Assembly (NCBI GenBank): GCA_048885765.1
Contig: JBHLLI010000001.1
Location: 2,592 to 66,591 of the forward strand
Length of the DNA stretch: 64,000 nt
Direction of reading: 5' to 3'
Source of the DNA: Candidatus Hermodarchaeota archaeon
GTDB lineage: Archaea > Asgardarchaeota > Lokiarchaeia > Sigyniarchaeales > SOKP01
Below, in pieces: positions 3,137 through 41,020 of the stretch. Position 1 is the stretch's first letter. Each line of letters starts with the position of its first letter. Made by a program: the position numbers and the translations under genes. The notes below the pieces were generated by a model, which worked only from the letters and a program-made list of their open reading frames with translations, was not told where the DNA came from and did no database searches.

Positions 3137-3142
3137 CTCCTT

Positions 3143-7741: not shown

Positions 7742-7775
7742 TAGGATAATAATAGAAATATAGTGTATAAAAATC
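7742..7775 (-). promoter_or_regulatory. conserved 34-bp upstream element (copy 1), contains a TATA-like box
   Basis: 'TAGGATAATAATAGAAATATAGTGTATAAAAATC' lies 86 nt upstream of the 577-aa gene start. It matches 29 of 34 positions of 11745-11778, upstream of the 1241-aa gene. In gene orientation it begins 'GATTTTTATACAC'. Confidence 0.5.
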
Positions 7776-7943
7776 TTTTTTTAGTCGTTGAAAATAATTC
7801 TCATTTATGAATTATATAAAAATCAAAAATATTAGCATATTATATTTATAGAGTTTTCAAACTTAAAATGGAGTTATAACAAAACCCCCATAAATGATAT
7901 TACCAATTATAGAAAGATAGTGTAAAAAAAATTTTTTTTAAAT

Positions 7944-10900
7944 TTATTCCTCTTTAAATAATAATTTGTCATCTTGTTTGACTTTTTCGGATTCAAATGA
8001 TTCTAGATTTAAGATATCAATATTATTTTGGACGGTATTTTTAATCAGTTCGTCTCGATTAGTCACTGAGATGGGTTTTGTCTTTTTCGTTTTTCGAACT
8101 TTTTTCTTTAGCTTTCTTATTTTTCTCACCATTGGAGGATATTTAAAATGTGTCTGATAGAGTGTGAAAATCAGTGCAAGTCCAATAATTCCACCAATTA
8201 ATATATATATAAGCCAACTCAAATCAGGTCCAGGACTTACCTCAGGTCTGGTCACGATTAAAGTTATATCCTTACTTGTATAAATATAATCATCTCCCGC
8301 ATCAGCATATAAAGTTATAGGATAGGAACCTTCTGGAACATTTTCCAAAAGATACTCATAAGTACCGTTATTATAAGTATCAATAAGTACGTCTTGACCA
8401 TATGCCCATTTGTATGTAACAATCGCATTTTTAATAGTGCCTCCAAAGTATGTATCAAGTAAAGTTGCTCTTAATATTACATCATCTCCAGGTATAGCCT
8501 CTATTTGAGACGATATATTAATTAACGTAGGTATTTTATTAATAGTAAGTATTAATAATTTTTCTTGAATCTCGTAATTCGTAGCAATTGCTGTAATTGA
8601 TATCCTATTAGAAATTGAAATTTCCAATCCCATTGAATGTACTAATTCCATTGTATCTAATTCAATACTATGTTGTTCTAAAGCATCATCTCTAGTTAAA
8701 TTAATTGACAGTTCATTTAGAGTTACATATGCATAAGGGATATAAGCACCAATCTCATTTGTATACTTCACTGTTATATTTAATATTTCTCCTATTGTAA
8801 GATTAAAAATAGCGGGACTTGTCTTAATAGCACCATTTAATAAAAGTTGAAAGTTTGTTGGCTTTTCGGTTACTTGAACGTAAAAGCTAATTGATTGAGG
8901 ATTATAATTATCTTTACGTGCAAACACTGTAAATGGTGTGATTCCTTGCTCTAAAGACTCTTCTCCTATAATGATAGTATACTGATTGTTTGTCTCATTT
9001 AGAAAGTCAATGCTTAATAATTCAACTGTTGCATTAGGAAGATGATTTCCATGAGAACTATCTCGATATTCAACAGTTATATTTATATCTTCGCCAAGGT
9101 CTATTTGGATTGTATCGCTAAAATTCGTTAGCTGTTGATTCACATACAATTCTAAATAACTTCCTAATTCAGTTATTTGGATCCTAATTAAAGCAAATTG
9201 TGCTTCATATTTATATGGATTAATAGATATTATTAAAGTCTGGAGAGTAAGTGAACTGTAAGCAGAAGTATTACATTCTAACTCGTATTGCCCGATAATA
9301 GGTTGAATTAGATGATATTCACCATTCCAGGATACATTAACATCATCAAAAGCATCTATCCCAAATCCACTATTCTTTTCAGTATAGTTAAATTTCACCG
9401 TAAAATTGTCATTCCATGCAACAGAAACAATATCAAGCCCATTTTCTACAGTAAGAACTGTTTGCTTTACTACTTCAACAGTAATATTTACTTCTTTATT
9501 CAAGTAAAATTCATGATCAGCATAAATTGTAACAGTATTATTGCCCGCACTAGCTTTACTCGCATTGAATTCATATAAGTAATAACCTGGACTTATTTCA
9601 CTTAAAATTTCAGGTGCCCCTGTGAAATCAGTATATACATCTGCATTTTCTATAGCTCTATTGTCTATTAAATCGTTATATGAGACTTTTATGTTTATAA
9701 TTCGATCATCAAAAACATTTTCAATGAAATCTATACCTTGATCTGGTACAAGCTTAGAATCATGGATTACTGTAAAGTTTTTATAAATAACTCCTGTTTC
9801 ATTTAAATCAAAAGAAGTATATGAATTATTCCAAGTAATAATTACTTCATATTCTCCCGCTTTATAATTAGGAACATTATTAGGTATCATAAATGGGTCA
9901 AAATAAACTATACCATTATCGTTAACTTGTTTAATTTGATTTTCTCCGGTCCATATAGTGCCATCCGGAAATCTTATATACAGGTTTGCCATAGTATTTC
10001 CGATATAACTAGATATATCAAGTTCGGGGCTCTCTATTTTTCCTGTTATATTGATATAATCTCCACTTATGAATGCATTATTAGGTACCCAAGGTCCAGT
10101 AGGAGTAGGACTGTTATAGATATTTAACTCTGAACAATAATTAGGTGATACTGCTGTTAACTTCCAAAATCCATTTGTATTACTTGTTATGGAACTTACT
10201 GGAATATTTACAATCTTCTTATTTGCATTCTCTGTTATTTTGGTTTGAGAAAGAGAATTAGGATTTTGAGAGAAGAATATTCCTGTTAAATTAACATCCA
10301 GAGGATATTCAACTGTCATATTTGTTTCCTCGTATCCTGCAGGAATTTCCATATGGGCATAAGTTGTCCAATCCACATTACTATTATTGGATACACTAAA
10401 AGCAGATCCTTGATAACTAAGATCTGGATCAGCTGTATAATAAGTTTCAGGACTAGATTTATATGTAAACAAATTCAAATTTGCATCAAGTTCTATCTTA
10501 TAACTTATCCAATTTCCTTCATCTTTAAAAGTCAAAAGCCAATTCAGATCACTACTAAAATTAGCTATTACTGATGATTGGATACTTCCATTCCAATTAC
10601 CTAAAATACCAAGATTACCTTCACCATAATTAACATTATCATTCACATCTTCACCATTTAATTGCAATTCCAGTTGACTTGGTTTTGCTTTCGATTTTAC
10701 AATTAACGAAACATTATCAAAAAGAGTAGAATAATCTGCATAACCTGAAGCAGTTCCGCTGACTCTTTTAAATTCTATGGTAATATTCATATTTTTAACT
10801 CCTTCAGGAAATATTTGATCATCATTACCATCTAAGTAAATAGGATATGGATTATACCATTGACCATTAGAATTGCCACATGCGTCTAGCATAGACTGAA

Positions 10901-11669
10901 GACCATTACCCCATATAAGTTTATCATTTACTAATACTTGCAATACCATATGATTATTGAAATTATCACCATGTTTTGGATAAACCGCAAAAGATAACCA
11001 AGCATTATCTACATCCCCTCTATCAATTTCAAAAGTGGTTTCCCACCAGCACTTATCACCAACATCATAACGACCAGATCCATCCCCATCAATGGCTAAT
11101 TCCAAGCAATCCTCTCCTCCATCAGTTAAAGGTTGACTACCATCAAAATAATTTCCACTCATAGCATTAATATATCCTTGTATATCCTGTGTTCTAAATG
11201 TCCAATTAGTAAGATATGCACTATCATCATCTCCAAATGGAGACCCTCCAAAAGAACCAGCATGAAATGTTCCATTAATCCAGTTACGTGTATCGTATAA
11301 ATTAGTTACCATAGAATTTAGTTGGTACCCATTCCATCCGTATAATTCTACTTTTGCGTGAGTATCATCATAAGAATTATTGTTAAAACTAACTGCTAAA
11401 TTTGATTTTGTGTAATTAGCATAATGAGTTACATTCCAAGGAGCTCCTGTACCAGTGAATAAATTTCCTGCTGATAATTCTGAAGTTGCTAAATTTTCAG
11501 CAAAAAAAGATTCCTCTTTATTATTATCATTTTGATGAAAATTCGGATTTATATTAAGATTACTGAAAAAAGGAATCATTAAGAGACTAATGAAAAAAAC
11601 TGATAAAACATAAATCTTTTTTTTGTTAATTTTGTTTGAGTTCAAAATCCAACCTCTTTTTATTTTCAA
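7944..11669 (-). CDS. large surface protein with jelly-roll/CBM-like N-domain, repeated Ig-like beta-sandwich modules, one TM and the conserved basic tail
   Basis: 1241 aa. TTG start with 'AGGT' 4 nt upstream and anchor 'IYVLSVFFISLLMIPFF'. There are dozens of N-x-S/T sequons and recurring modules such as 'NITVEYRDSSHGNHLPNATVELL', 'NITVKYTNEIGAYIPYAYVTL' and 'NIKVSYNDLIDNRAIENADVY'. C-terminus is 'SPGPDLSWLIYILIGGIIGLALIFTLYQTHFKYPPMVRKIRKLKKKVRKTKK'. Confidence 0.8.
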   Translation of the reverse strand: MKIKRGWILNSNKINKKKIYVLSVFFISLLMIPFFSNLNINPNFHQNDNNKEESFFAENLATSELSAGNLFTGTGAPWNVTHYANYTKSNLAVSFNNNSYDDTHAKVELYGWNGYQLNSMVTNLYDTRNWINGTFHAGSFGGSPFGDDDSAYLTNWTFRTQDIQGYINAMSGNYFDGSQPLTDGGEDCLELAIDGDGSGRYDVGDKCWWETTFEIDRGDVDNAWLSFAVYPKHGDNFNNHMVLQVLVNDKLIWGNGLQSMLDACGNSNGQWYNPYPIYLDGNDDQIFPEGVKNMNITIEFKRVSGTASGYADYSTLFDNVSLIVKSKAKPSQLELQLNGEDVNDNVNYGEGNLGILGNWNGSIQSSVIANFSSDLNWLLTFKDEGNWISYKIELDANLNLFTYKSSPETYYTADPDLSYQGSAFSVSNNSNVDWTTYAHMEIPAGYEETNMTVEYPLDVNLTGIFFSQNPNSLSQTKITENANKKIVNIPVSSITSNTNGFWKLTAVSPNYCSELNIYNSPTPTGPWVPNNAFISGDYINITGKIESPELDISSYIGNTMANLYIRFPDGTIWTGENQIKQVNDNGIVYFDPFMIPNNVPNYKAGEYEVIITWNNSYTSFDLNETGVIYKNFTVIHDSKLVPDQGIDFIENVFDDRIINIKVSYNDLIDNRAIENADVYTDFTGAPEILSEISPGYYLYEFNASKASAGNNTVTIYADHEFYLNKEVNITVEVVKQTVLTVENGLDIVSVAWNDNFTVKFNYTEKNSGFGIDAFDDVNVSWNGEYHLIQPIIGQYELECNTSAYSSLTLQTLIISINPYKYEAQFALIRIQITELGSYLELYVNQQLTNFSDTIQIDLGEDINITVEYRDSSHGNHLPNATVELLSIDFLNETNNQYTIIIGEESLEQGITPFTVFARKDNYNPQSISFYVQVTEKPTNFQLLLNGAIKTSPAIFNLTIGEILNITVKYTNEIGAYIPYAYVTLNELSINLTRDDALEQHSIELDTMELVHSMGLEISISNRISITAIATNYEIQEKLLILTINKIPTLINISSQIEAIPGDDVILRATLLDTYFGGTIKNAIVTYKWAYGQDVLIDTYNNGTYEYLLENVPEGSYPITLYADAGDDYIYTSKDITLIVTRPEVSPGPDLSWLIYILIGGIIGLALIFTLYQTHFKYPPMVRKIRKLKKKVRKTKKTKPISVTNRDELIKNTVQNNIDILNLESFESEKVKQDDKLLFKEE

Positions 11670-17240: not shown

Positions 17241-18188
17241 ATGTCATTTGATTTTGTAAAAAAATTGGATTTTGAATCAGAATATTTTGATCTGTATAAA
17301 CTTTCCCAAAGTGCGTATGGCGCCATTGGTAAAGAAAACTCTGGAATGGGGGGAAATGCTGGCTTTATAGATATAGAGGATTACTTGATAATTGTTGATA
17401 CTACTGGGAGTGTAGATGCTGCTAAAGATTTAAAAAAAGCCGCTATCCAATTTACTGAAAAACAGCCTAATTTTATAGTTATTACTCATTATCATATGGA
17501 TCATCTTATGGGGACTTCTTTATTTGATAGAACAATTCAGATTATGACTTCAGATCGTACTCTTAAAAATATTCAAACAGAAGGCAAAAAAAGGATCGAA
17601 GAATTTAAGAATATGAATCTTGCTGAAATGGAAGAATCGCTTAAAAATGAAACGGACAAAGTGAAAAAAAAAGAGATTGAAAATGATCTCATCTTTCTTA
17701 AAACAGTTCGTTCCGATAACTTCGCTCTCCGAGAACCTAATCTTACTTTTAAGGAAGGATGCGTTATATATGGGAAAGGCGAGTCAGTCCATTTACGAAC
17801 CTTTAAAAAAGCTCATACTGATGGAGATGTAATAGTATATATTCCGGAAGAAAAAGTATTATTTGCTGGAGATCTTTTGTTTGCACGAGTGGATCCATGG
17901 TTAGGCTCTGGAAACCCTGAAGGATGGATTGCTGTAAATGAAGAAATAATGACATTTGATTTTAATGTTGTAGTTCCTGGACATGGCAAATTAGCTTCTA
18001 AGGAGCAATTTTCCCTTGAAAATAAATATATTAAAGAAATTCTTGATTTAGTTAAGAAAAAAATTGATGCGGGAGAAGATCCAACCCAAATAAAGCGAGA
18101 GGATTTTTCAGAGGAGTTACAATCCTTTGAAAGTCCCATTTTAGAATGGAATCTTAACTTTCTTGCTGAAATTTTAAAGAAATCCTAA
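17241..18188 (+). CDS. MBL-fold metallo-hydrolase (paralog 1 of 3)
   Basis: 315 aa. 'THYHMDHLMG' (HxHxDH), a later 'AHTDGD' and 'PGHG'. Confidence 0.8.
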   Translation: MSFDFVKKLDFESEYFDLYKLSQSAYGAIGKENSGMGGNAGFIDIEDYLIIVDTTGSVDAAKDLKKAAIQFTEKQPNFIVITHYHMDHLMGTSLFDRTIQIMTSDRTLKNIQTEGKKRIEEFKNMNLAEMEESLKNETDKVKKKEIENDLIFLKTVRSDNFALREPNLTFKEGCVIYGKGESVHLRTFKKAHTDGDVIVYIPEEKVLFAGDLLFARVDPWLGSGNPEGWIAVNEEIMTFDFNVVVPGHGKLASKEQFSLENKYIKEILDLVKKKIDAGEDPTQIKREDFSEELQSFESPILEWNLNFLAEILKKS

Positions 18189-18403
18189 CTTTAATTATTT
18201 TCATTGAACTTTTTAACTAAATTTGTTGTTTCAATATGAATGCACTTTAGAGTTTTAAATATTATAACTATTGAAAGAAATCCTTCGTATAGTTCATTCA
18301 TACGGTATAGTTCAGCTCAAGTTCATGAGATTAATCTATAAATAAATACTAATCTTTAACTCAATTATCTACTCCATTTTAATAAAAATAACTGAAAAAT
18401 ATT

Positions 18404-19246
18404 ATGGATTATAAAAAGACTGACTTCGAATCGGTATATTTTGATCTTTTTGAATTGACAGAAGGAATTTATGCGGCTATCTCTATAAATGATTCTGATG
18501 CTAAGACAAGTGCAGGAATCTTTGATTTAGGGAACTTTTTGATCATTTTTGATACATTATTTTATCCTGGGGCTGCAGTTGATTTATATAAAGCAGGAAA
18601 AGAATTGTGTGATAAAGAACCATCATTTATCGTTAATAGCCATTTTCATGGGGATCATGTATTTGGTAACTGCCTTTTTCCGGATAATGTTCCTATAATA
18701 AGTACTTCTCCTACTGTAAAAAAGATACAAGAAGTTGTTTTTGACCAACTCAAACGCTCTCAAGATATTGCCGAAGAGGAAATTCAAAGACGCAAGGAAA
18801 TGCTAAACTCAGATGATGCTCCATGGGGTAAGCAGGAATCATTAAATGATATTGAATTCAGTAAGATGGTAACAGAGCCAGATTTTAAAATTAAATTACC
18901 AAATTTCTTGATTAATGATAATATTACGATCAATGGTACAAAAAAAACTCTTCATTTAATCGCCTATGGTATTGGCCATACAGAATCTGATATTATAGCT
19001 TATTTTCCAGATGAAAAAATCTGTTTTATGGGGGATCTATTATTTGCTAATTTGGATGATAGTTGGGCTCCAAATGATACTGGAAGATTTAATGCGGCTG
19101 ATCCTTTAAAATTATTCGAGATTTTAAAGAATATATTAGAAATGGATATAGATATATATGTAGCAGGCCATGGAGGAGTATCAACTAAAGATGCCGTACA
19201 AATGAATATGAATTTCATAAAAAAATATTTTATTGACAAACTATAA
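18404..19246 (+). CDS. MBL-fold metallo-hydrolase (paralog 2 of 3, more diverged)
   Basis: 280 aa. 'SHFHGDHVFG', 'GHTESD' and 'AGHG'. Its N-terminus 'FESVYFDLFELTEGIYAAI' is shared with the neighbours. Confidence 0.8.
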   Translation: MDYKKTDFESVYFDLFELTEGIYAAISINDSDAKTSAGIFDLGNFLIIFDTLFYPGAAVDLYKAGKELCDKEPSFIVNSHFHGDHVFGNCLFPDNVPIISTSPTVKKIQEVVFDQLKRSQDIAEEEIQRRKEMLNSDDAPWGKQESLNDIEFSKMVTEPDFKIKLPNFLINDNITINGTKKTLHLIAYGIGHTESDIIAYFPDEKICFMGDLLFANLDDSWAPNDTGRFNAADPLKLFEILKNILEMDIDIYVAGHGGVSTKDAVQMNMNFIKKYFIDKL

Positions 19247-19345
19247 GATAACAATCAATTTCAAAATATCATGTTAAATCTCAATTTTAAATATTAAACT
19301 CATATAATCGATAAAATTTATCAAAACTAAAAAAAAAAAAAAATT

Positions 19346-20293
19346 ATGTTAGATGTAAAAAAACTTGATTTCGAATCTGATTATTTTGATCTCTATAAGG
19401 TTTCGGAATCTGCTTATGCAGCCATTTCACAAGAAGATTCACCTATGGGATCAAACGCAGGTTTTATTGATATAGAGGATTATTTAATCATTATTGATAG
19501 TACATTACATGCTGGAGCTGCAGAAGATTTAAAACGAGCAGTATTAAAATATACCCAGAAGGAACCTAATTTTATTGTGATCACGCATTATCATACAGAT
19601 CATATTGTCGGAAACTCTATCTTTGATAGAAATACACAAATAATCACTTCAGATCGAACCCTAATTAATATCAAAACAGAGAGTAAAAAGTTTTTTGAAC
19701 AATACAGGAATTTTGATATGGAAAAAATTCTTGAACTAGAGGAATCTCTTGAATTTGAAAAAGATGATGAGAAGATCCAAGACATAAAAAATGATCTTAG
19801 ATTTTTAAAAGGTATTCGGACAATAAAAGAAATTCGAGAGCCTAATCTCACATTCAAGATAGGATGTATCATACACGGTAAAGAAAAAAAAGTCCATTTA
19901 CAAACGTTCGAGAAAGCTCATACTGATGGAGATGTCATTGCATACATTCCTGATGAAAAAGTCTTATTTGCGGGGGATCTTTTATTTGCTAATCGTGACC
20001 CTTGGATTGGATCAGGAGATCCTGAAGGATGGTTGTCGGTAAATGAGGAATTGTTGGCCCGTGATTTTGATATCATTGTTCCCGGCCATGGAAATTTAGC
20101 CTCTAAAAAAGAATTTACTTTACAGAACATGTACATTAGGGAAATGATGGATCTCGTTAAAAAACATATTGATGCTGGAAAAGATCCAACCCATATAAAA
20201 CGAGAGGAGTTTTCTAAAGAACTTCATTCATGGAATAGTATAACCCTTGGATGGAATATTAATTTTCTTGCAGAATTTCTAAAAAAATCTTAA
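19346..20293 (+). CDS. MBL-fold metallo-hydrolase (paralog 3 of 3)
   Basis: 315 aa. 'THYHTDHIVG', 'AHTDGD' and 'PGHG'. It is collinear with and clearly the closest paralog of 17241-18188. Confidence 0.8.
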   Translation: MLDVKKLDFESDYFDLYKVSESAYAAISQEDSPMGSNAGFIDIEDYLIIIDSTLHAGAAEDLKRAVLKYTQKEPNFIVITHYHTDHIVGNSIFDRNTQIITSDRTLINIKTESKKFFEQYRNFDMEKILELEESLEFEKDDEKIQDIKNDLRFLKGIRTIKEIREPNLTFKIGCIIHGKEKKVHLQTFEKAHTDGDVIAYIPDEKVLFAGDLLFANRDPWIGSGDPEGWLSVNEELLARDFDIIVPGHGNLASKKEFTLQNMYIREMMDLVKKHIDAGKDPTHIKREEFSKELHSWNSITLGWNINFLAEFLKKS

Positions 20294-20318: not shown

Positions 20319-21344
20319 CTAAATAAGATTCTTTTCTTTTATAATTTTGTAATATTTATCTCGTTCTTGTCGTACAAGCTTAATTTCTTCCTGTAAATCT
20401 TTTAATTCTCGACTAATATTTTCCTTTTCATTTTTTATCCCTAAAACCTTATCCTTTAATTTTTTAATTTCATTTTCTAAATTCGGAACTGATTCACTCT
20501 CTCTTTGTGCTTTCAGAGTCTGAAATTTCATTTTTTTATTAATCTCAGTTAATTTTTCATTTTCCAATCTGATTTTCTTAATTTCATTAAGAAGTTGTTC
20601 TGCGCCTCTTTCAATTTCATCTGTATCCCCTAACTTTGCTTTTAGGTGATTAATTCGCTCATCTTTCTGGTCTAATGATAATTTTTGCACATTTAACAAT
20701 CTATTTAGTTCTCTGTTTTTCGCAGTTAAAGTTGCGTTATACTCATTCAATTCTGCCATTTGACTACTCCATTTTTCCAATTTCGAATACAACTCTGCAA
20801 CTTCATTTTTTAAAGCTTCAACATTCCTAAGATGTTCTGATCTATCAGAGACCAACAGAGATACTTTTTGCGCAAGATCATTAATTTTCTCCTTTTTATC
20901 CCCTAATTCTTCTTCAAATTCTTTTCTTTCCTGCCAGTAAGCATCGAGCTCACCCTTCTCCAATAACTCATATGATTTTGCTAATAGTTCCTTAAATTTT
21001 TTTTCCTTTCTTTCTGGTAATAATTCAAAAGCAATTCTGCGTACTTGACCTTCAAAATTTTTAGGGAGAATATCTTCGTCAGAAAGGAATACTGTAATTA
21101 CGTGGTCCCCTTTCCCAATAAAATGTTTAGAAGAATGACCAGTAAAAAAACTCGCCACACTAAGATCACGTTTTATTTGCATTTCTAAATAATTGGGACC
21201 TGTTCTTACTCTCTTATGCTCTTCAAAAACTGTCGAAAGCATTGAATCTGTTACGCCCAATTCTTCACAGGTTTTTTCTGGGTATTCAATATCCTTTCTT
21301 AATTCTAATTTCTTATTTAGATTTAGAATCACAATTCCTTGCAT
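20319..21344 (-). CDS. longin-like N-terminal domain fused to a ~200-aa coiled coil
   Basis: 341 aa. The N-terminal ~110 aa ('LSVASFFTGHSSKHFIGKGDHVITVFLSDEDILPKNFEGQVRRIAFELL') resemble the N-domain of 3143-4270 and the cytoplasmic domain of 53430-59684. The rest is heptad-rich and charged (E/K/L). Confidence 0.5.
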   Translation of the reverse strand: MQGIVILNLNKKLELRKDIEYPEKTCEELGVTDSMLSTVFEEHKRVRTGPNYLEMQIKRDLSVASFFTGHSSKHFIGKGDHVITVFLSDEDILPKNFEGQVRRIAFELLPERKEKKFKELLAKSYELLEKGELDAYWQERKEFEEELGDKKEKINDLAQKVSLLVSDRSEHLRNVEALKNEVAELYSKLEKWSSQMAELNEYNATLTAKNRELNRLLNVQKLSLDQKDERINHLKAKLGDTDEIERGAEQLLNEIKKIRLENEKLTEINKKMKFQTLKAQRESESVPNLENEIKKLKDKVLGIKNEKENISRELKDLQEEIKLVRQERDKYYKIIKEKNLI

Positions 21345-21459: not shown

Positions 21460-23007
21460 TTAAGTATATATGTGCAAAAAAGTATCTACCGTTTTTGTAA
21501 CATCTGTAGTTAAATAATTCTGCTTAAACACTGAAGCAAAAAAAGCTCGATCTTCAGGATTAAAATAATTATATCCAAATTTCTTCCAATTGAGGGTTGG
21601 ATGTATTGGAGCGAAAAGGGTTATTTTATCTTTCACTAAACTCATTAAAAGAAGGTCTCTTTCTTCCTTTGTGCTATTTGATGATATATTTAACAACACA
21701 TTCTCACTCAAAAAATCCCATGTATCTTCAAATTGTATACATAGCTTTTTAATATCAATTTTATTTTCAACAATTAATTTTGCTAAAGCCATAACAGAGG
21801 TATCATAAGCACTTATCTTATTCATATGAAATTGGGGATTTGAAACTAATATACTTGGTATAGTCTTTGTTTCTTTCTGATTCTGAGGTGTATTATACTC
21901 TGGTAAAATCTTTAATTGGTTTAAACCCAAGATATTTCGAATATCTGTAATTGTACCCCCTGTATCAAAAAATTGCTTATTGATTATATATTTCATCAAT
22001 TTCTGGGCGTGTGCATCACCAAAATATGGATAATCTGTGGCAAAAAGGAGATATTCGGACCAATCTCGATTATCTACGCTTTTTTTGTTGTGAGATTGAA
22101 ACCATTTGCGGAAACTTTCAAAAAAATTACCAGCACCTGCTCCATGCAACATTGAAAGATCTCCATATGTGTTTGGTTGAACTATTGTATTATATACTTC
22201 ATAATCGTCGATATTCCCTTGAGCAAAATGAGCAATTATCACCTTAAAATGAGGTAATAAATCTGGAAAATTTGATTGCATTATATTTCTAGCTGCTCTA
22301 ATTAATTTTCCAATTTCTAATATTGATCCTCGACCTCTTGTATCAAAAATAATAGGTAATGAATAACTTGCAGCCTCAACAAGAACATTTATGACTTTTT
22401 CTGAAGTCATCTTGTCAATATATCCTTCTGATCGTGGATGTAGTTTTAAACCACGAAGTCCTAAGGTTTCCCTAGCATATTTCACTTCATTTATCGCTTT
22501 TTGCCCCTCCATTGGATCACAGCGCCCATAACCAATTAATTTCATAGAAAATGGAAATCTCGTTGCAAAGCGTGAAACATTAACATTACTTGCTCTATAC
22601 AATGCTTCTGGCATTTTGTCTCTGAAAACATCTTGAAAAGGGAAACAAACACCCATATCGATAAATGAATAAAATTTAGATTTCTCCTTTAAATCAGAAA
22701 ATTTCTTTCCTAACTTCTCAAGCTCACTATAAAGCTTATTTGTAAATGGAAACGGTGTAAAAGACCATGAGATTTTTGTAAATTTCCCATCCATTGTAGT
22801 AGTAAAAGACTGCTCTCCAGTTTTCTCCCAATCTGCTTTTACTCTTCCTTGCACATTTCCCCAAAAATCGAATGTCCCCACTCCTGGAGCCAAAGGATTC
22901 ATCATCGTGGCTCCATCTACATCTTGGCCAAGATGAGAATGAGCATCAATTACAAGCAAATGCTCTACTCTTTTTTTTCCGTCTTGTTCAATCGTACAGG
23001 TTAGCAT
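21460..23007 (-). CDS. amidohydrolase-superfamily (amidohydrolase_2-like TIM barrel) metal-dependent hydrolase with C-terminal extension
   Basis: 515 aa. 'LVIDAHSHLGQD' (HxH), 'GLRGLKLHPRSEG' and 'FATDYPYFGD'. Confidence 0.65.
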   Translation of the reverse strand: MLTCTIEQDGKKRVEHLLVIDAHSHLGQDVDGATMMNPLAPGVGTFDFWGNVQGRVKADWEKTGEQSFTTTMDGKFTKISWSFTPFPFTNKLYSELEKLGKKFSDLKEKSKFYSFIDMGVCFPFQDVFRDKMPEALYRASNVNVSRFATRFPFSMKLIGYGRCDPMEGQKAINEVKYARETLGLRGLKLHPRSEGYIDKMTSEKVINVLVEAASYSLPIIFDTRGRGSILEIGKLIRAARNIMQSNFPDLLPHFKVIIAHFAQGNIDDYEVYNTIVQPNTYGDLSMLHGAGAGNFFESFRKWFQSHNKKSVDNRDWSEYLLFATDYPYFGDAHAQKLMKYIINKQFFDTGGTITDIRNILGLNQLKILPEYNTPQNQKETKTIPSILVSNPQFHMNKISAYDTSVMALAKLIVENKIDIKKLCIQFEDTWDFLSENVLLNISSNSTKEERDLLLMSLVKDKITLFAPIHPTLNWKKFGYNYFNPEDRAFFASVFKQNYLTTDVTKTVDTFLHIYT

Positions 23008-23159
23008 GAAAAAATCAATTAATATGTTACTTTAGAAATTAGTAATAATGACTTAATTAAAATTTAATTATTACTATATTGTCTTTTATTTTGGTCAAAA
23101 TTAATTAATTAAAGAAGAAAAAGTAAAAAAAATCTATTATAATTAGAATTGTCTTATAA

Positions 23160-23981
23160 CTATCCTGCCGTACTTGAAGGAATTATAAGAATTTCGTCCC
23201 CATTAACTAAATTGTAGTCCTTTAAGCATAAACTTTCGTCAAATGTAATGCCTCCCGAAGCTAAATGAAAATCTAATGGGTTTAAACCATACATATTTCC
23301 TATTGTTTCTTTGATCTCCCTGATTACATTATTGGTATCAATTTCTAATTTTTGCCTTTTCTCACTAGGTCCGATAGTTGACAAAAAATAGATTGTAATT
23401 TTTTTATCTTCAATGACTGGGACTTCAGCAGGAGTCTTGGCTTTTATTGATCCAGGCGTTTTAGTCCTAATAGTGAATAAAGTTTTTTTATAAGTATCTT
23501 TTTCTTCTTCTTGAACTTCTTGTTTAATCGTTTCCTCCTCTACTTCAATTAAATCTTCCAAATTATCAACATGTATCTCATTATCAGTCAAAATTTTATT
23601 TTTATCTAATCGTTTTATCTCAATTTTATTTAATAGTTCATTTAACTGAAAATTTTCTTCTTGTAAGCTTACTATCTCATCCATTAATGTTTCTGTAATT
23701 TTTCTCGTTAAATCTTCAGAAAAAATACCTATACTATCTTGTATTTCTATAACATCGACTCCACGCACTTGTAATTGTTTGTCTAAGTAGAGAATTGTAA
23801 GTAGATCGTTTAGATTACCCTCTGAAGAATGGAGATATGCATATGAAAAGGGAAAACTCGTTTTATTTTCGAATAAATCTTTCTGTAACTTTACAGTATG
23901 AGTTTTTTTACATTTTGGGCAATTATATAACCTATTCAGAAATTCTGATTCAGTGGAGTTATCTTTATTTAAATTTTCCAT
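23160..23981 (-). CDS. protein with N-terminal CxxC knuckle, central coiled coil and C-terminal ubiquitin-like beta-grasp domain ending in Gly
   Basis: 273 aa. The C-terminal 78 aa are 'KITIYFLSTIGPSEKRQKLEIDTNNVIREIKETIGNMYGLNPLDFHLASGGITFDESLCLKDYNLVNGDEILIIPSSTAG'. They align by eye along the whole of ubiquitin: '[56 protein letters not shown]'. Confidence 0.65.
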   Translation of the reverse strand: MENLNKDNSTESEFLNRLYNCPKCKKTHTVKLQKDLFENKTSFPFSYAYLHSSEGNLNDLLTILYLDKQLQVRGVDVIEIQDSIGIFSEDLTRKITETLMDEIVSLQEENFQLNELLNKIEIKRLDKNKILTDNEIHVDNLEDLIEVEEETIKQEVQEEEKDTYKKTLFTIRTKTPGSIKAKTPAEVPVIEDKKITIYFLSTIGPSEKRQKLEIDTNNVIREIKETIGNMYGLNPLDFHLASGGITFDESLCLKDYNLVNGDEILIIPSSTAG

Positions 23982-24046
23982 TAGATTTCCCTAAATTGCT
24001 AATTTATACTCTTTAGCTCTAAAGAGCCTTTTAGCATTTAATCTTA

Positions 24047-25714
24047 TTATCTCATTTCTTTTGGAAGAGTTAAAACTCCCGTAAGTGGATTATTTAAGGG
24101 ATCTTGACAATATTGAATTGTAAAATATATCAAATCATATAGGATACTTGGATTCTCTCCATTTTTCAATTTATAATCATAAAGCGAAAGTTGATATTCT
24201 GCTTCTGTTATTGGAGGCTCAGCATAAGAAACACTCCCAAATACAGATTGTAAAATAGGTTTCATAAATGGAGAGTATAAGAAACCTAATTCTTTCAATT
24301 CATCTTTCAAATAGAAAAACATTCTCTGAACTGCTTGCATCATATAACGTACTGGCTGATTTTTTGGTCCTAGATATTGTTCCGCGAATTCAGGGTCATA
24401 TTGAGCTAAGTTTTCTCGAGAAAGATCGGGTGCAGGTCTAAATAAGGAAATTAAACCACGTTCAATAGCACTTTTACGATTAGGGGCAATAGTATTACTT
24501 CCTGCATCAGGAACCCATATTCCACGCTGGAGTAATTTTCTTGCCTTATAGCACATAGCTTGTATTAAAAGGGCAATACCAATTCGACGACAAATAGAAA
24601 TTTGAGCATCACTTATACGAACCTCGATCGTTCCCCAGTCCGTGAAAGGGAAAACATCTTGAAAACGGCCATCCTCCAAACTAGCTTTCTGTACAACTTG
24701 GAGAAAGTAATTTTGCGAATTTTGATCTGAAGAAGTTAAATAAGGTATGAAATGAGTAGGATCGTTGTTACTTAACATAGTAGTATTATATTTAAGTCGT
24801 AAGGATCTTACGCAGTTTGGAGCAGTAATTCGATTATTTATAATTTTTACTACATCCGTAGGTTTATTATTCAAAATTGGTGAATTGCAAGTAAGAGCAA
24901 TAATATGTGGTATAAAATTACGGATCATACAATAAGCTTGAATCTTTTCTAATTCTGATTCAAAAGAGCCTAAGTGACTGTGATCCGCTTGTGAAACTCC
25001 CCTCATATATTCACTAGTCGCAGGATTTATAGCAGAAGCAATTATATGCAAATCTTTAGGTAATGTGGCTTTTGCTAATAAAAATAGTGTACTCGCCCAG
25101 AACGCTAATTCTTCAACATAAACACAGGGGGGTGTGACAAGCTCTAATATATATGTAATTGCTGTTACATTGCCATCTCTAGCAAATGTATCAATATCTA
25201 CGTAAGAATCTCCCAATGCGTAACGAATATCCATTGCGTATCCTTTTTCAAGGTCATCTCTTCCCCATGGTCTAGCCAATACTTTTTGCCGAATATAATC
25301 TGGGACTTGTAGAAAATCACTTCTCCCTTCATATAAGATCTCATCCATGATTTTGATAGCATCTTTAACAATTTCTTTCATCCGATAAACCATTTCTTCT
25401 CCAGGAGGATAATCACCATTATCATCCGCGATTATTAATTCCATCTCGATACCATGAGTGAATGGCAATGGAGTCCAATGTTCCGTATCAGCTAACATTT
25501 CTCCCCATGGTCTTTCAGGGATATATACTTCACGGTAATCTGACCCTAGAAATAATTTATCCCTAGATCTGTCAATACTATTTCCTAGTGAAACACTTGG
25601 TATTGCAGTTTTGCCTTTCTTAGTATATAGTTGAGAAAAGGTATCCGCCTTTTGCGCAGATTTTTGTTTCTGCTTTTTATCTTTCTTTTGTTTCTTTTTT
25701 TTGTCTTTTGCCAT
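24047..25714 (-). CDS. GCS2/YbdK-family carboxylate-amine ligase (glutamate-cysteine ligase-like) with Lys-rich N-terminus
   Basis: 555 aa. 'PFTHGIEMELIIAD', 'ILELVTPPC' and 'WGTIEVRISDAQ' resemble the GCS2 signature regions. The N-terminus is 'MAKDKKKKQKKDKKQKQK'. Confidence 0.6.
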   Translation of the reverse strand: MAKDKKKKQKKDKKQKQKSAQKADTFSQLYTKKGKTAIPSVSLGNSIDRSRDKLFLGSDYREVYIPERPWGEMLADTEHWTPLPFTHGIEMELIIADDNGDYPPGEEMVYRMKEIVKDAIKIMDEILYEGRSDFLQVPDYIRQKVLARPWGRDDLEKGYAMDIRYALGDSYVDIDTFARDGNVTAITYILELVTPPCVYVEELAFWASTLFLLAKATLPKDLHIIASAINPATSEYMRGVSQADHSHLGSFESELEKIQAYCMIRNFIPHIIALTCNSPILNNKPTDVVKIINNRITAPNCVRSLRLKYNTTMLSNNDPTHFIPYLTSSDQNSQNYFLQVVQKASLEDGRFQDVFPFTDWGTIEVRISDAQISICRRIGIALLIQAMCYKARKLLQRGIWVPDAGSNTIAPNRKSAIERGLISLFRPAPDLSRENLAQYDPEFAEQYLGPKNQPVRYMMQAVQRMFFYLKDELKELGFLYSPFMKPILQSVFGSVSYAEPPITEAEYQLSLYDYKLKNGENPSILYDLIYFTIQYCQDPLNNPLTGVLTLPKEMR

Positions 25715-25816: not shown

Positions 25817-27670
25817 TTAAAATAAAGATTGAATAAAACTTTTGAAAGTGTCATAGTCATTGATAAATTCATAAGATAAGACTAAATTGATGATTTTAGT
25901 TTTATTTGTTGGAAATATCTCTGCGAGCTCATGAGAGATTCTACCACCTTTAAAAACAGAATCATCTGTTATTAAATCTATCTTTTCTCCCATCTTTTTA
26001 ATTTTTGAATAAAATCGTTCTCCTAATTCGCTTTCTGATGATATTATTATCGTTGGTTTTCCCAAATATGGAATAAAGTCTAAATTAAATATTAATGTTT
26101 GGCCTGGAACGTTGCTGAGATTCCCAAAAAATTGTTTCAATGAAGTCTTAAGTGTATTTAACTCATTTTGATTGTAATTTTCTTTAGATGGAAAGAGATA
26201 ATATGCTATTGATTTCTTTTGGGAATATTTTAAATCGTTATATACTCGATCTAATATCGGAAAAATACTAAAATCAAAACTAAATAAAGATAAAAATGCA
26301 ATAGCAAAATTAAAATCATTCGCAAGGAGATTACTACTAACATTTCCACCAGTTAAACTAAAGTTTGTAATTTCCCTATTAACTTGGGAGACATAAGTAT
26401 TTAATAAGAAATATTGAGAAAAGACGAGGGTAGCCTCAATCTTAGTCTGTATCTCATCAACCATTTCATAAATAAGATCAAATAGATTTTTAGTTAACTT
26501 TTCTTTAAGTTCCTGAATGGTAATACTTTCGATGATAGAATGAGCAGTGTTGGGGCTGTCATATTCAGCAAGAGCATTAATTGCATCCTTTAAGTTTTCA
26601 TATGACTCTTTTCTTATTTTTTTATTTTCCTGATTTTTATGATAGGAAATGAGATTTATTTGAACAATTCTATTTAAAATATTAATTACTTCAGATTGAG
26701 CTTCCTGGCCGTAAAACTTTTTTGCTACATTAAATAAGACTGTTGTCTTTTGAAAATCATTATCAACATGGTTTATTAATTTCACAACTAAATTGGGATT
26801 GGTTTCAATAATCTTACGGAATATATAACTCATAAGATCTTCTTTAAAGGCAGGTTCTGGAATTAAAGTTGTTGTAGTAATTGCTTGTTCGGGATTAACT
26901 GCAATTCGATCTAAAGCTAATAAATTTAAAATTTTATTCTTTAGGGTCAAATCTTGCATATTTTGAGCTAATTGGACCATTTGATCAAAATTTTTAGATG
27001 CATAAGCTCGAATTAAATTTGTATATAAATCAATTTGTTCAGTACTTTTGGAGACCATTAGTGCGTACTCTAAAGCTTTTAGAGGATTATTAATTGAAAG
27101 ATAACCTTTTGCTATTTGCTCTATATATGAATCTATTTTTTCAAGCAATTGAGAAGTTGGTGATCCCATAGATTGTGCTGAACTTAATTCATTTCTTAGA
27201 CTTTCTAACTGTTTTTCTGCCTTTTTTATTACGTTTTGATCCATATGTATGAAATAGTCTTCTGAATTAAAAGTATCAACCTTATCAACAATAGAAAAAA
27301 CGTGCGTTTTTAGAATCGAGTTCATTTTACTAACAGGAACAACACCCCGAACTCTTTGCACTTTAACTTTGTATTCAGTAATCTTAAGCCAATTTACATT
27401 GATAATTAATTTTCCAACACCATCAGTAGTCGGTTCTAATTTTAAGGTTATTTCCTTGGTTTCTCCTGGACCAAATTCGATATGATCGTTAAAAGCCTCT
27501 GATCCTACTTTTATTTTTAAATTCTCCCCTTCAAAGTCAAATTTGTATGTCTCTTTTTTGCTTGAAGTGTTTACTGCATGAATTTTAACTTCATTTTCGA
27601 TACCTGAAATTAATAAGTTCTGCGGAAATTTAGAGAAATTCAAAGAGATGGCTTTGTCTGAGTTTGACAT
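25817..27670 (-). CDS. hypothetical protein: N-terminal Ig-like beta-sandwich, helical-repeat middle, alpha/beta C-domain
   Basis: 617 aa. The N-terminal ~100 aa ('VKIHAVNTSSKKETYKFDFEGENLKIKVG...PGETKEITLKLEPTTDGVGKLIINVNW') have a CARDB/Ig-like pattern. Residues ~180-420 look helical-repeat-like. No family recognised. Confidence 0.4.
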   Translation of the reverse strand: MSNSDKAISLNFSKFPQNLLISGIENEVKIHAVNTSSKKETYKFDFEGENLKIKVGSEAFNDHIEFGPGETKEITLKLEPTTDGVGKLIINVNWLKITEYKVKVQRVRGVVPVSKMNSILKTHVFSIVDKVDTFNSEDYFIHMDQNVIKKAEKQLESLRNELSSAQSMGSPTSQLLEKIDSYIEQIAKGYLSINNPLKALEYALMVSKSTEQIDLYTNLIRAYASKNFDQMVQLAQNMQDLTLKNKILNLLALDRIAVNPEQAITTTTLIPEPAFKEDLMSYIFRKIIETNPNLVVKLINHVDNDFQKTTVLFNVAKKFYGQEAQSEVINILNRIVQINLISYHKNQENKKIRKESYENLKDAINALAEYDSPNTAHSIIESITIQELKEKLTKNLFDLIYEMVDEIQTKIEATLVFSQYFLLNTYVSQVNREITNFSLTGGNVSSNLLANDFNFAIAFLSLFSFDFSIFPILDRVYNDLKYSQKKSIAYYLFPSKENYNQNELNTLKTSLKQFFGNLSNVPGQTLIFNLDFIPYLGKPTIIISSESELGERFYSKIKKMGEKIDLITDDSVFKGGRISHELAEIFPTNKTKIINLVLSYEFINDYDTFKSFIQSLF

Positions 27671-38550: not shown

Positions 38551-39912
38551 AATGAATGACCTACTACTCATTTTATTTCAAATAATAATATCAACGATAT
38601 TATTTTGAATTATTTGTGGCATTAGTCCGAATACCTCTATCCCATCCACCGATATGGCATTTGGGAATACTTTTTTCATGATATTATATGCTCCATTTAC
38701 ATCAGCGTTGAATAGAACTCCTTTAGAGGTTTGGAACAAACCTCTAGAAATCCTTTTTCCTACATAATTTTGATGTTTCTTGATTGGTTCATTATCCAAA
38801 AAAGAGCACTTAGAAGTATAACTTTCATTAACAGTTAAGACATAAATTCCTTTTAATTTTGCTTTATATTCGATTTGTTGTACTAATTTCAAAAATGGGA
38901 TTTGTACAAACTTCTGATTATTTCTTTTTCCTATATTGATCTTTTGCTTCCACCCGTTATTATATCCTATTACTATTGTACCAATGTTATGTAAAGTGCA
39001 GTATTCAATTATAATCTTAGAGATCCGATGAAATAAGGTAATAAGTTTATTGTTTCGCGTTAAATGGAGTCTTTGAATTCGTCTAGTTTCCATGAAATTA
39101 CCTTTCTTATTCTCAATGCTTCTATAATATGCTAATTGCTTGTTATAATATTGATTTATAGATTTTATCATCCCACCTTTAATAATAAATGGTTTGCATC
39201 CATTATTATTTACTGCAGTTATGAGATTATTTAATCCTAAATCAATACTTAAAATATGATCTTTATCTAATCCTAAGTCTTCCTCTTCTTTCTCATATAT
39301 AAGCTCAACTTTATATCTTGTCCCTAAAGGGATTATTCTAACTTCTTTTAATCTTTCTGTAACTCTTGTTTTAATAGGATCAATATTTACTCTTTTAGGA
39401 AAATATAGATATCCATTCTTAATTTTACATTGCTGATTGGTAAAAATTACTATAAACTCCCCGTTTTTCTTTTTATAACTTGGAATTTTTGGTTTTTTCT
39501 TAAATTTCTTAAAATTTTTTATATATTCCCTAAGAGTTTTAAAATAAGATTTCCAATTTCGAGTTAGATATTTGAGAATTTGTTGAGATGTTTGAGAAGG
39601 AAGATTCCTATAAGCTTGTGTATATTTTAAAATGAAATCTAGATCATAATAGGTTAAAAGATTATTGAGCTTAAAAAAATCTTGTCTCACATACCAATTG
39701 GCCAAATTATAGAGATTCTTAGCTAAGTAGCATAACTTTGATAATTCTAATGAATATTTTACTTGGACAACTTCAGTTAATTTCACACTAATATTATTAA
39801 AAAACGATTATTATTTAATAAGGTACAGTGTTCAAAATAACTAATCTTTCCAATAATAATATCAAACGAATAAAAAGATACATTTTATAAGAAAGTTATA
39901 TACTACAATCAA
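38551..39912 (-). mobile_element. IS200/IS605-family element remnant carrying only tnpB (boundaries approximate)
   Basis: A TnpB ORF without tnpA lies between the isoprenoid genes. Only 27 nt separate its stop from the convergent IPK-IDI2 stop. Confidence 0.4.
38578..39786 (-). CDS. tnpB: TnpB (IS605 OrfB-type RNA-guided nuclease family)
   Basis: 402 aa. The RuvC triad context is 'SIDLGLNNLITAV', 'VNESYTSKCS' and 'FNADVNGAYNIMKK'. The C-terminal layout is typical of OrfB. Confidence 0.85.
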   Translation of the reverse strand: MKLTEVVQVKYSLELSKLCYLAKNLYNLANWYVRQDFFKLNNLLTYYDLDFILKYTQAYRNLPSQTSQQILKYLTRNWKSYFKTLREYIKNFKKFKKKPKIPSYKKKNGEFIVIFTNQQCKIKNGYLYFPKRVNIDPIKTRVTERLKEVRIIPLGTRYKVELIYEKEEEDLGLDKDHILSIDLGLNNLITAVNNNGCKPFIIKGGMIKSINQYYNKQLAYYRSIENKKGNFMETRRIQRLHLTRNNKLITLFHRISKIIIEYCTLHNIGTIVIGYNNGWKQKINIGKRNNQKFVQIPFLKLVQQIEYKAKLKGIYVLTVNESYTSKCSFLDNEPIKKHQNYVGKRISRGLFQTSKGVLFNADVNGAYNIMKKVFPNAISVDGIEVFGLMPQIIQNNIVDIII

Positions 39913-40305
39913 TTAATATGAATTGCTTTTTCCTTCTATTGAATTTCCTATTTCGTTAATAAAATCAGAAAAAGCCCCGATTTTTCCTTGATATTTTTCT
40001 AGATTATCTTTATAGAGAGTCAGGAATTTATCTGATATTTTTTCTAATTCCTTATTTATTTTTTTCTGATTGTATTTTTTGGATGAAGTTGCGACAAAAA
40101 TAAGATCCCTTTTCTTTATTATTGTAAATCTCTTATCTTTTAGGTCAAAATTTGATAAGCCTCCTTCAGTTAACTGTTCAGCAAACATATTGAGTGCACT
40201 CATCATTGCCCCAAAAAGTTGAGGAGAGACAATACTATCAAATTCTCTGTGAAAAATTGTTATTCCTGAATGCTCCAAAATCCAAATATCTTGTAATACT
40301 TTCAA
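39913..40305 (-). CDS. stand-alone longin-like small protein
   Basis: 130 aa. The pattern is beta-beta ('IWILEHSGITIFHREF'), alpha ('PQLFGAMMSALNMFAEQL'), beta-beta-beta ('LSNFDLKDKRFTIIKKRDLIFVATS'), then alpha. It resembles the open frame upstream of the GTPase gene at 52931-53191. Confidence 0.5.
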   Translation of the reverse strand: MKVLQDIWILEHSGITIFHREFDSIVSPQLFGAMMSALNMFAEQLTEGGLSNFDLKDKRFTIIKKRDLIFVATSSKKYNQKKINKELEKISDKFLTLYKDNLEKYQGKIGAFSDFINEIGNSIEGKSNSY

Positions 40306-40471
40306 TTGGACTCACAGTTAAATCTCTATTAATTATTAGAAGTTATAAAACTATAATGCATTATGGAACTACTTTGAATTTAAATTTACACTTCTTATGC
40401 ACTAGTTATGTTTTTAATCTATTTTTAAGTTTTTGTAGCATTGAACTATGAGAATTAATTTTTGAACAAAA

Positions 40472-40858
40472 TTAAGCAATACTATATTGCTTTATTTGGT
40501 CAAATATGTCATTAAAATCAGATAAATCAAAAGGCTTTTTTAAATATCCATCTGCGTTCGTTTCAAGTGCTTTTACAGCAATTTCTGTTTCAGTTACTCC
40601 AGTAAAATAATATACAAGTATTTTATTGAACTTTTTTGATGACTTTAACATTTTACAAAAATCATATCCATTAGAATCTGGCAGATTTACATCTAAAAGT
40701 ATTAATTTTGGAATGTGAGCTTCTAATTCTTTCATTGCTGAATAAGTACTTTCAACAGCTTTACAGCTATAGCCCTTTGATTTTATAATTATTGTTAATA
40801 ATTTTTCTATATATTTGCTATCATCAATTATTAAAATGTCGTATTTAGAATCCTCCAC
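40472..40858 (-). CDS. single-domain response regulator (CheY-like receiver)
   Basis: 128 aa. 'ILIIDDS', phospho-acceptor context 'LILLDVNLPDSNGYDF' and 'YLKKPF'. Confidence 0.85.
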   Translation of the reverse strand: MEDSKYDILIIDDSKYIEKLLTIIIKSKGYSCKAVESTYSAMKELEAHIPKLILLDVNLPDSNGYDFCKMLKSSKKFNKILVYYFTGVTETEIAVKALETNADGYLKKPFDLSDFNDIFDQIKQYSIA

Positions 40859-41020
40859 ACCCTATCAACCGTAATAATTCTGTCTTTTTTATTTGAATAA
40901 AAAATTTTCTTTACATATTTTTTACAAAAGAATTTTTATTTAAGGTTGGGTTTTTACATAGATTTATGTAACGATATCATAAAATTACCAAAATGGGAGA
41001 ATTTACACACAAATTTTAAT

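Follow-up and report, generated by a model that had tools for sequence, protein, structure and literature searches.

A gene in a 64,000-nucleotide stretch of a Candidatus Hermodarchaeota genome (the window; GenBank assembly GCA_048885765.1, contig JBHLLI010000001.1, positions 2,592 to 66,591, assigned to the Lokiarchaeia in GTDB) raises the question of which enzymes, if any, use the C-terminal glycine of its product. The product is a fusion protein of 273 amino acids in which a putative Zn-binding beta domain, a putative coiled coil and a linker precede a ubiquitin-like (Ubl) domain that closes at Gly273, and its gene lies between those for a carboxylate-amine ligase and an amidohydrolase. An earlier interpretation of the letters alone (the sequence-only reading) suggested that the ligase might conjugate the Ubl protein without an activating enzyme (E1). 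We consider it probable that the fusion is a ubiquitin paralogue bearing a Zn-binding beta domain and a coiled coil, and that it serves as a modifier of the canonical Lokiarchaeal system of E1, conjugating enzyme (E2) and JAB peptidase. The genome that holds the window comprises 4.29 Mb in 249 contigs and is 87% complete; the window lies on contig C1 and has a G+C content of ~30%. The gene and its Ubl domain are placed as follows:

23160..23981, minus strand: open reading frame for the 273-amino-acid fusion protein, with its stop codon at 23160-23162 (open reading frame and translation, 77 homologues, AlphaFold2 model)
23163..23414, minus strand: ubiquitin-like beta-grasp domain, residues 190-273, ending ...IPSSTAG (Pfam, PDB profile, AlphaFold2, Foldseek, conservation of the C terminus)

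As judged from its predicted structure, the C-terminal domain is a genuine ubiquitin-like beta-grasp. The Pfam ubiquitin family matches residues 209-264 below its cut-off (E = 0.0041), and a profile of 62 homologues matches ubiquitin chains in the PDB, including the single-domain chain 2mlb (E = 9e-5). In an AlphaFold2 model built on 62 homologue sequences, residues 190-270 have the secondary structure of a beta-grasp, with predicted local distance difference test (pLDDT) values of ~74-91 in ten-residue blocks; the mean over the whole protein is 67.8 because residues 125-189 are disordered. Foldseek placed ubiquitin from Caldiarchaeum subterraneum first (6fno_D; E = 7.5e-7, template-modelling score for the target 0.78, root mean square deviation 1.4 over 77 columns), with ubiquitin (including variants), ISG15 and NEDD8 at lower ranks. 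Both the open reading frame closing at ...ILIIPSSTAG, directly followed by the stop codon, and the ubiquitin-like domain had been called in the sequence-only reading, and the structure prediction and Foldseek search that it proposed bear out the domain over ~84 residues, with an archaeal ubiquitin as the best match. The last Lys or Arg of the protein is ~20 residues from its end.

We collected 77 homologues of the fusion among 5.8 billion cluster representatives, 69 of which keep the motif IP[SA][SR]x[AVS]G. Of these 69, 20 terminate at the Gly and 49 have a further 1-19 residues after it; the tails are mostly 2-3 residues long, their first residue is Phe or Leu in 30 of 49 cases and the remainder is unconserved. 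The motif is missing in seven homologues, mostly fragments cut before the end and otherwise proteins with divergent ends, and a terminal Gly is absent from one of the 77 (P0074). Conservation of the Gly among orthologues, whose absence the sequence-only reading would have taken as a refutation, is found in 69 of the 70 homologues that reach the C terminus. Conservation that halts at the Gly and gives way to a stop or a variable tail points to a processed, conjugatable precursor of the ubiquitin type. In the excerpted text of PMC5654768, an Rpn11/JAB homologue removes a nine-residue tail from an archaeal (Caldiarchaeum) pro-ubiquitin before its use by E1 and E2, a precursor with the pattern seen here.

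Genome-wide Pfam searches for ThiF, UQ_con, JAB and zf-RING_2 gave 5, 5, 7 and 4 matches, respectively, on other contigs and none on contig C1. The earlier statement that the window lacks E1, E2, RING and JAB genes is accurate for this contig, yet it misleads because a complete operon with matching Ubl C termini is present on contig C77 (locus L088). Ubl, E1, E2 and JAB proteins are encoded together there at 6650-9754 (Pfam E-values from 4e-7 to 3e-59), and the gene order is a 145-amino-acid acidic Ubl (...SVAG), a divergent 264-amino-acid membrane protein, a helix-turn-helix protein, a 110-amino-acid Ubl (...STAG), E1, E2, JAB and a 401-amino-acid membrane protein with a Cys/His-rich C terminus and no Pfam match. 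The E1 (438 amino acids) matches ThiF (E = 3.3e-59), the E2 (175 amino acids) matches UQ_con (E = 1.5e-24) and has an HPN...C motif, and the JAB peptidase (E = 5.4e-18) has the motif HxH...S..D. The 110-amino-acid Ubl has a second copy on contig C10, and over residues 178-273 the fusion is 55-56% identical to these 110-amino-acid Ubls. Of the small free Ubls (n = 73), 63 close at the Gly, and in 7 it is followed by a tail of 1-2 residues. The 264-amino-acid membrane protein (4828-5622 of C77, minus strand) is a divergent neighbour of the 145-amino-acid acidic Ubl in many genomes; its C-terminal Ubl domain ends ...IPSRKEKN with no Gly, and it would be a non-conjugatable, membrane-anchored ubiquitin-like domain.

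The same operon accompanies the fusion gene in other genomes. When one genome from each of 185,579 species was scanned, 276 stretches with a relative emerged, and the best 80 of these 276 include 13 fusion loci that cover both the N-terminal domain and the Ubl (L013-L025). In five of them (L019, L020, L022, L023 and L024; 45-49% identity), a Ubl-E1-E2-JAB operon is located 0.9-2.3 kb upstream of the fusion gene; its products are a divergent coiled-coil protein, a Ubl of ~116 amino acids, an E1 of the ThiF type, an E2 of the UBC type, a JAB peptidase and a membrane protein of ~400 amino acids. No other locus outside the window's clade offers more than 6 kb of sequence upstream. By locus, 5 of the 13 are near the operon, 4 are in the ligase context and 4 have flanks that are too short or a different context: L018 and L021 have fewer than 650 bases upstream, too short to show context, L017 (73% identity) represents a third context, and L025 encodes a 365-amino-acid triple fusion without the Gly.

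The fusion might, alternatively, not be conjugated at all and act as an adaptor whose Ubl docks non-covalently, for example on a UEV/ESCRT-I protein, the proteasome or an E1 or E2, while the N-terminal module would have a different binding partner. Many eukaryotic adaptors contain an integral Ubl domain, some relatives survive despite having no Gly (P0074 and the 365-amino-acid protein of L025), and the 264-amino-acid membrane protein on C77 has a related Ubl domain that ends without one. According to the excerpted text of PMC9192718, yeast two-hybrid assays show binding of ubiquitin by Asgard UEV proteins, which we count in favour of docking. What is hard to explain without cleavage or use is that conservation stops at the Gly in 69 of 70 homologues, beyond which there is either the stop codon or a short tail that is not conserved; furthermore, the Ubl is always at the extreme C terminus, and its last residues match those of the free operon-encoded Ubls. 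The adaptor role, a fallback of the sequence-only reading, remains a serious rival in its non-covalent form, although the conservation of Gly-terminated ends weighs against it and we judge it unlikely.

To place the Ubl domains relative to one another, we calculated a quick maximum-likelihood tree of 103 distinct domains (88 columns) from 134 open reading frames, leaving out those without the C-terminal motif, those with fewer than 80 residues before it and duplicates. The free small and acidic Ubls form a single clade of 88 rows (Shimodaira–Hasegawa-like approximate likelihood ratio test (SH-aLRT) 98), and the Zn/coiled-coil fusions are placed apart from this clade, as two or three groups. 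Members of the window's clade (L013-L017) come together with an SH-aLRT of 80, beside two Roadblock-like-Ubl fusions. Given this position outside the free-Ubl clade, the fusion Ubl appears to be an old paralogue and not a recent copy of a free Ubl.

Conjugation by a different E1/E2 pair of the genome, that of contig C41 or C9, would accommodate fusion Ubl domains that form lineages apart from the free Ubls, and five ThiF-family matches and no fewer than three E1/E2 neighbourhoods (C77, C41 and C9) are present in the genome. We regard it as improbable: the C9 system has a Ubl of its own, synteny with the fusion in other genomes is seen for the C77-type operon alone, and only the C77 Ubls share the end ...IP[AS]S[TV]AG. 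The C9 neighbourhood (39542-41787) encodes a JAB-like protein of 164 amino acids, an E1 of 297, an E2-like protein of 188 and, convergently, the Ubl, an 85-amino-acid protein ending ...GG plus one residue.

Other N-terminal modules are joined to related Ubl domains. L027 (7545-8468) encodes a 307-amino-acid protein that matches Pfam Robl_LC7 below the cut-off (E = 0.0041) and ends ...STAG. The 277-amino-acid protein of L045 (around 8001) has the same ...STAG end and is Roadblock-like by N-terminal similarity to L027 only. In the 365-amino-acid protein of L025 (2289-3386), a segment similar to the N terminus of L027, with no Roadblock match in Pfam, precedes the Zn/coiled-coil domain and the Ubl without Gly. 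No fused form of 479 or more amino acids was found, which is weak evidence.

In the window, the fusion gene is the third of five head-to-tail genes, and the features around it are as follows:

27670..25817, minus strand: first gene, a 617-amino-acid protein of unknown function
24047..25714, minus strand: second gene, a divergent GCS2/YbdK-type carboxylate-amine ligase of 555 amino acids (profiles, synteny)
24003..24008, minus strand: TATAAA hexamer, a possible archaeal promoter 22-27 nucleotides before the ATG of the Ubl gene, within the 65-bp spacer after the ligase stop
23125..23132, minus strand: run of eight T, a possible archaeal terminator signal 28-35 nucleotides past the stop of the Ubl gene
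21460..23007, minus strand: fourth gene, an Amidohydro_2-like metal hydrolase of 515 amino acids, conserved partner of the ligase
21344..20319, minus strand: fifth gene, a coiled-coil protein of 341 amino acids

This layout invites the idea of an ATP-dependent reaction free of E1 and E2, in which the GCS2/YbdK-like ligase would activate the terminal Gly of the Ubl and join it to amines of targets, with the amidohydrolase taking the tag off again. The ligase, Ubl and amidohydrolase genes lie on one strand with short spacers (65 bp between Ubl gene and ligase, 152 bp between Ubl gene and amidohydrolase), and their order is repeated in four loci, L013-L016 (76-88% identity). PafA and Dop belong to the carboxylate-amine ligase superfamily, and 48 of 143 ligase homologues have at least 850 amino acids, so that a macromolecular substrate is conceivable. 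Synteny and phyletic pattern nevertheless make this scheme very improbable, and on these grounds we reject the ligase as the Ubl conjugating enzyme.

We surveyed the 40 nearest species genomes together with the window genome (n = 41). The ligase is present in 36 and the hydrolase in 37, including all 36 with the ligase; a full-length fusion match occurs in only 3 (G000, G014 and G009), and 33 of the 36 ligase genomes keep ligase and amidohydrolase without any full-length Ubl fusion. In 17 of the 36, which span three families, at most 65 bp separate the two enzyme genes and no Ubl gene intervenes; inserts of 1.0-5.4 kb separate them in 13, and in the other 6 they are on different contigs or 61 kb apart. 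Modifier and ligase are thus not linked across the range of the family. Neither enzyme gene lies within the fetched flanks of the other 9 of the 13 fusion loci, and the more distant fusion orthologues are found beside E1-E2-JAB genes instead. The neighbourhood of all three genes, which the sequence-only reading proposed to follow across Asgard genomes, is confined to the window genome and four close relatives, a narrow clade with at least 76% identity; a lack of synteny elsewhere was among the refuting observations that this reading had named. In G009 and G014, a permease and other opposite-strand genes separate the Ubl gene from the amidohydrolase. The TATAAA box and the T-run, both read from the sequence, suggest that the Ubl gene is a transcription unit of its own. 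The sequencing runs listed as containing the stretch are four DNA runs from one study, with no RNA run among them. Moreover, the modifier is a folded beta-grasp with the end of an E1-operon Ubl, unlike Pup, a disordered peptide whose last residue is Gln or Glu. A partnership between ligase and Ubl is not supported, and E1-independent conjugation gives way to the fallback of the same reading, that of an unrelated small-molecule ligase, which fits the data better.

The ligase and the amidohydrolase are a conserved pair of their own, separate from the Ubl, and the junction between their genes has taken up other genes repeatedly. A CitMHS/ArsB-type permease of 431 amino acids is encoded there on the opposite strand in several genomes of the genus (L014, 8842-10137; L013, 11365-12660), accompanied in G014 by corrinoid methyltransferase-like genes. 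Directly after the Ubl gene of G014 there is a frameshifted duplicate of the last ~55 ligase codons (L013, 8886-9052; G014:C60, 46616-46788), which looks like a scar of Ubl-gene insertion; unlike in G014, no such duplicate was found beside the Ubl gene in the window.

Profiles bear out the earlier call of a GCS2/YbdK-like ligase of 555 amino acids encoded upstream on the same strand, with a Lys-rich N terminus (~75 residues, probably disordered). The NCBIfam family TIGR02050 matches it at E = 5.1e-10, below its cut-off, and Pfam GCS2 at E = 0.01; among 18 sampled relatives, GCS2 matches 13 at E ≤ 0.001, 11 of them over the cut-off. A profile of 24 relatives finds the YbdK chains 1r8g (E = 3.6e-22) and 1tt4 (E = 1.5e-22) in the PDB and nothing else at E ≤ 0.01, and the ligase aligns with YbdK-type proteins over the motifs PFT.GIE.E and GT.EVR..D. 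Pfam and NCBIfam name only GCS2/YbdK families for it, and not PafA/Dop. Conserved columns of acidic residues, His and Arg, the kinds that have catalytic roles in these enzymes, include E90, E92, E191, H247 and R366 and are compatible with an active enzyme. The family is small, with 143 representatives (50% identity, E ≤ 0.001) among 1.84 billion proteins. The 48 largest (among proteins P0204-P0262) are giants of 850-3804 amino acids with the ligase domain at either end; the remainder of these proteins is mostly without a Pfam match, one having HhH motifs, one a VWA domain and one zinc ribbons, and no similarity was found between their extra regions and the neighbours in the window.

The downstream gene had been called an amidohydrolase-fold enzyme. 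Amidohydro_2 (PF04909) matches the window protein weakly, below the cut-off (E = 6.5e-4), and is matched by 10 of 12 orthologues (best E = 1.6e-7), which upholds the call. Residues D21, H23, H25, H190, H260 and D325 are invariant, and HxH...H...H...D is the metal-ligand pattern of Amidohydro_2-type hydrolases; no sequence relative of the family was found in the PDB at E ≤ 0.1. Because the ligase and hydrolase co-occur strictly and their genes frequently abut, the two enzymes would act in one pathway, in which ATP-dependent amide synthesis is paired with hydrolysis, probably of a small-molecule amide. Just before the cluster, on the plus strand, the window also contains three tandem paralogous metallo-beta-lactamase-fold genes (17241-20293; 315, 280 and 315 amino acids).

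The Ubl domain of the fusion is preceded by three further parts:

23742..23948, minus strand: five-stranded beta domain, residues 12-80, with a presumed zinc site at C21, C24, H28 and H51 (invariant columns, models)
23595..23717, minus strand: one long helix, residues 89-129, a presumed coiled coil (models, invariant columns)
23415..23594, minus strand: acidic linker, residues 130-189, predicted to be disordered, with two [KR]xKTP motifs (172 and 180) just before the Ubl (pLDDT below 50 over residues 125-189, motif scan)

The CxxC knuckle and coiled coil that the sequence-only reading placed ahead of the Ubl correspond to C21/C24, which are real, and to the helix that follows them, for which a coiled coil is presumed. 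C21, C24, H28 and H51 are invariant across the 62 homologues and also in six stand-alone relatives (116-133 amino acids) from other Lokiarchaeal families, and we presume that they bind zinc. Structure models place five strands over residues 14-79. The helix of ~40 residues has a heptad pattern (I103, L106, N110, L113, L117 and I120, with the register read from the letters), in which Asn110 occupies a core position; E109 and N110 are invariant among the fusions, and the module probably dimerises.

The N-terminal domain has no meaningful Pfam or NCBIfam match, and its PDB profile search returned coiled-coil noise alone. Against the PDB, Foldseek gave the domain model no convincing solved fold (best E = 0.35); in a wide VIA-align search, the helix (residues 85-130) alone was matched, with Z ≤ 5.8, and among the top 988 Foldseek chains the rows spanning the beta part reached Z ≤ 3.3. 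The SAS-6 and XRCC4/XLF rows of the VIA-align search align over essentially the helix alone. The ESM Atlas returned three unnamed Promethearchaeota clusters (scores 0.79-0.90) and no usable named cluster. A relationship to the ESCRT-I-like Asgard family Znr_PH_CC_SB (PMC10936438) was considered as a possibility. Six loci with stand-alone N-domain genes were compared, and no common neighbourhood emerged. In one of them, from the same genus (L094, G005:C64, 4734-7826), a stand-alone Zn/coiled-coil domain of 116 amino acids lies between a paralogue of the 341-amino-acid coiled-coil protein and genes for Ras-like and RagA/Gtr1-like GTPases; the 341-amino-acid protein itself (20319-21344) is encoded two genes from the fusion in the window.

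The linker motif recurs in ubiquitin-operon proteins. K[ST]KTP occurs six times among the 6730 open reading frames of at least 60 amino acids in the genome, with a shuffled expectation of 1.2. Ubiquitin-operon proteins account for five of these: the C terminus of a 385-amino-acid coiled-coil protein, encoded upstream of the operon, has three, and each 110-amino-acid Ubl is preceded by one. The looser [KR][STA]KTP is found in these proteins and the window fusion in 7 of 10 cases (shuffled expectation 4.0). The sites are at 23415-23480 of the window, 3021-4178 and 6650-6982 of G000:C77 (L088) and 11178-11519 of G000:C10, and the motif may be a shared docking or modification site.

We hypothesize that the fusion functions as a modifier of the C77 system in the following way. 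Its ...STAG end would already be mature in this genome, and the short tail that most orthologues carry would first be cut off, presumably by the JAB/Rpn11-type peptidase that the ubiquitin operon encodes. The terminal Gly could then be adenylated and thioesterified by the C77 E1 and passed to the adjacent E2, and the whole protein, with its probably dimerising N-terminal module, would be attached to target lysines as a tag with a payload. The position of the gene at the ligase/amidohydrolase junction would reflect a recent, lineage-confined insertion into an unrelated conserved pair.

Several observations weigh against a role as modifier of the C77 system. Within the window's clade, the E1/E2 operon lies away from the fusion gene, and with 65 bp between the latter and the ligase gene on the same strand, co-transcription with the ligase is possible. 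The fusion is missing in full-length form from 38 of the 41 related genomes and so appears dispensable, and the two relatives that have lost the Gly (P0074 and the protein of L025) indicate that the family can survive when its end is not conjugatable. In place of Gly-Gly, the fusion has Ala-Gly as its last two residues. A separate, old paralogue might leave some room for a different E1. Finally, zf-RING_2 has no match on C77, the four matches in the genome being on other contigs, and an E3 was not found.

A broader proposal, which we put forward tentatively and consider somewhat doubtful, is that Lokiarchaeia use 'payload ubiquitins': whole folded modules (Zn/coiled-coil-Ubl, Roadblock-like-Ubl and the triple Roadblock-like/Zn-coiled-coil/Ubl form), ending in the same reactive ...STAG, would be attached by canonical E1 and E2 enzymes. 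Work on Asgard ubiquitin systems treats them as forerunners of eukaryotic ubiquitylation and has so far taken the modifier to be a small free protein. If the proposal is true, Asgard archaea could attach adaptor modules covalently to targets, which would alter that picture; ubiquitylation would install dimerising or GTPase-regulatory adaptors on its targets, and, in the archaea most closely related to eukaryotes, the ubiquitin system would be tied to the Roadblock/small-GTPase network. PafA-like, E1-independent ubiquitin ligation in Asgard archaea, by comparison, is not supported, the ligase and amidohydrolase being a separate conserved enzyme pair.

Multi-domain Ubl modifiers have precedents in the bacterial Bil/Bub Ubls, in the literature consulted, and in ISG15 and FAT10. 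We found no description of an archaeal Zn/coiled-coil-Ubl fusion in the literature searched, which does not show that the fusion is unpublished. The system with the closest resemblance in fold and gene content is the Caldiarchaeum subterraneum operon for ubiquitin, E1, E2, a small RING protein and Rpn11/JAB, as described in the excerpted text of PMC5654768. Its modifier is a beta-grasp protein and the best structural match to the fusion, precursor tails past the reactive Gly occur in most fusion orthologues, and the same gene set (Ubl, ThiF-type E1, UBC-type E2 and JAB) is present on C77 and beside the fusion in five other genomes. The fusion differs in having ~190 extra N-terminal residues, in ending Ala-Gly and not Gly-Gly, and in being encoded away from the operon in the window; in addition, no small RING protein was found in the C77 operon with Pfam zf-RING_2. 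Structures of the Caldiarchaeum ubiquitin system are reportedly deposited as 6fno, 6fnn and 6fj7 (PMC6043591).

The excerpted text of PMC11601596 describes bacterial Bil/Bub Ubls with 'a variety of N-terminal domains', through which BubA forms filaments. The fusion shares with these proteins a Gly-ended C-terminal beta-grasp preceded by folded, possibly self-associating domains, with the whole multi-domain protein as the modifier. It has a different N-terminal domain, an archaeal host and no sign of a defence context, and a Cys-type E1 and UBC-type E2 are expected to act on it, not the oxyester chemistry of Bub.

With Pup (the prokaryotic ubiquitin-like protein of actinobacteria), PafA and Dop, the shared element is only the idea of tagging by a carboxylate-amine/glutamine-synthetase-like ligase free of E1 and E2. 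Pup is a small disordered modifier attached through a C-terminal Glu or Gln, with the linkage at the Glu side chain, whereas the fusion is a folded beta-grasp ending in Gly. The window ligase is YbdK/GCS2-like, and its linkage to a Ubl is limited to one narrow clade; PafA structures are presumably present in the PDB, and the ligase profile matched YbdK-type chains only. With the YbdK/GCS2 ligases 1r8g and 1tt4, the window ligase shares a family profile match and motifs. It differs from them in length (555 against ~370 amino acids), with its Lys-rich N-terminal extension and a C-terminal extension of ~130 residues, and in belonging to a small family that often occurs within giant proteins and is always paired with an Amidohydro_2-like gene.

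Among eukaryotic proteins, ISG15 and FAT10 are modifiers that extend beyond one beta-grasp and are conjugated via a C-terminal Gly, and ISG15 is among the structural matches of the fusion; their extra domain is a second Ubl and not an unrelated Zn/coiled-coil module. Adaptors of the Rad23/Dsk2 type, exemplified by Rad23, carry the Ubl at the N terminus and have no reactive C-terminal Gly. Set beside these systems, the canonical E1/E2 chemistry envisaged for the fusion is ordinary, and the module attached to the Ubl is what is unusual.

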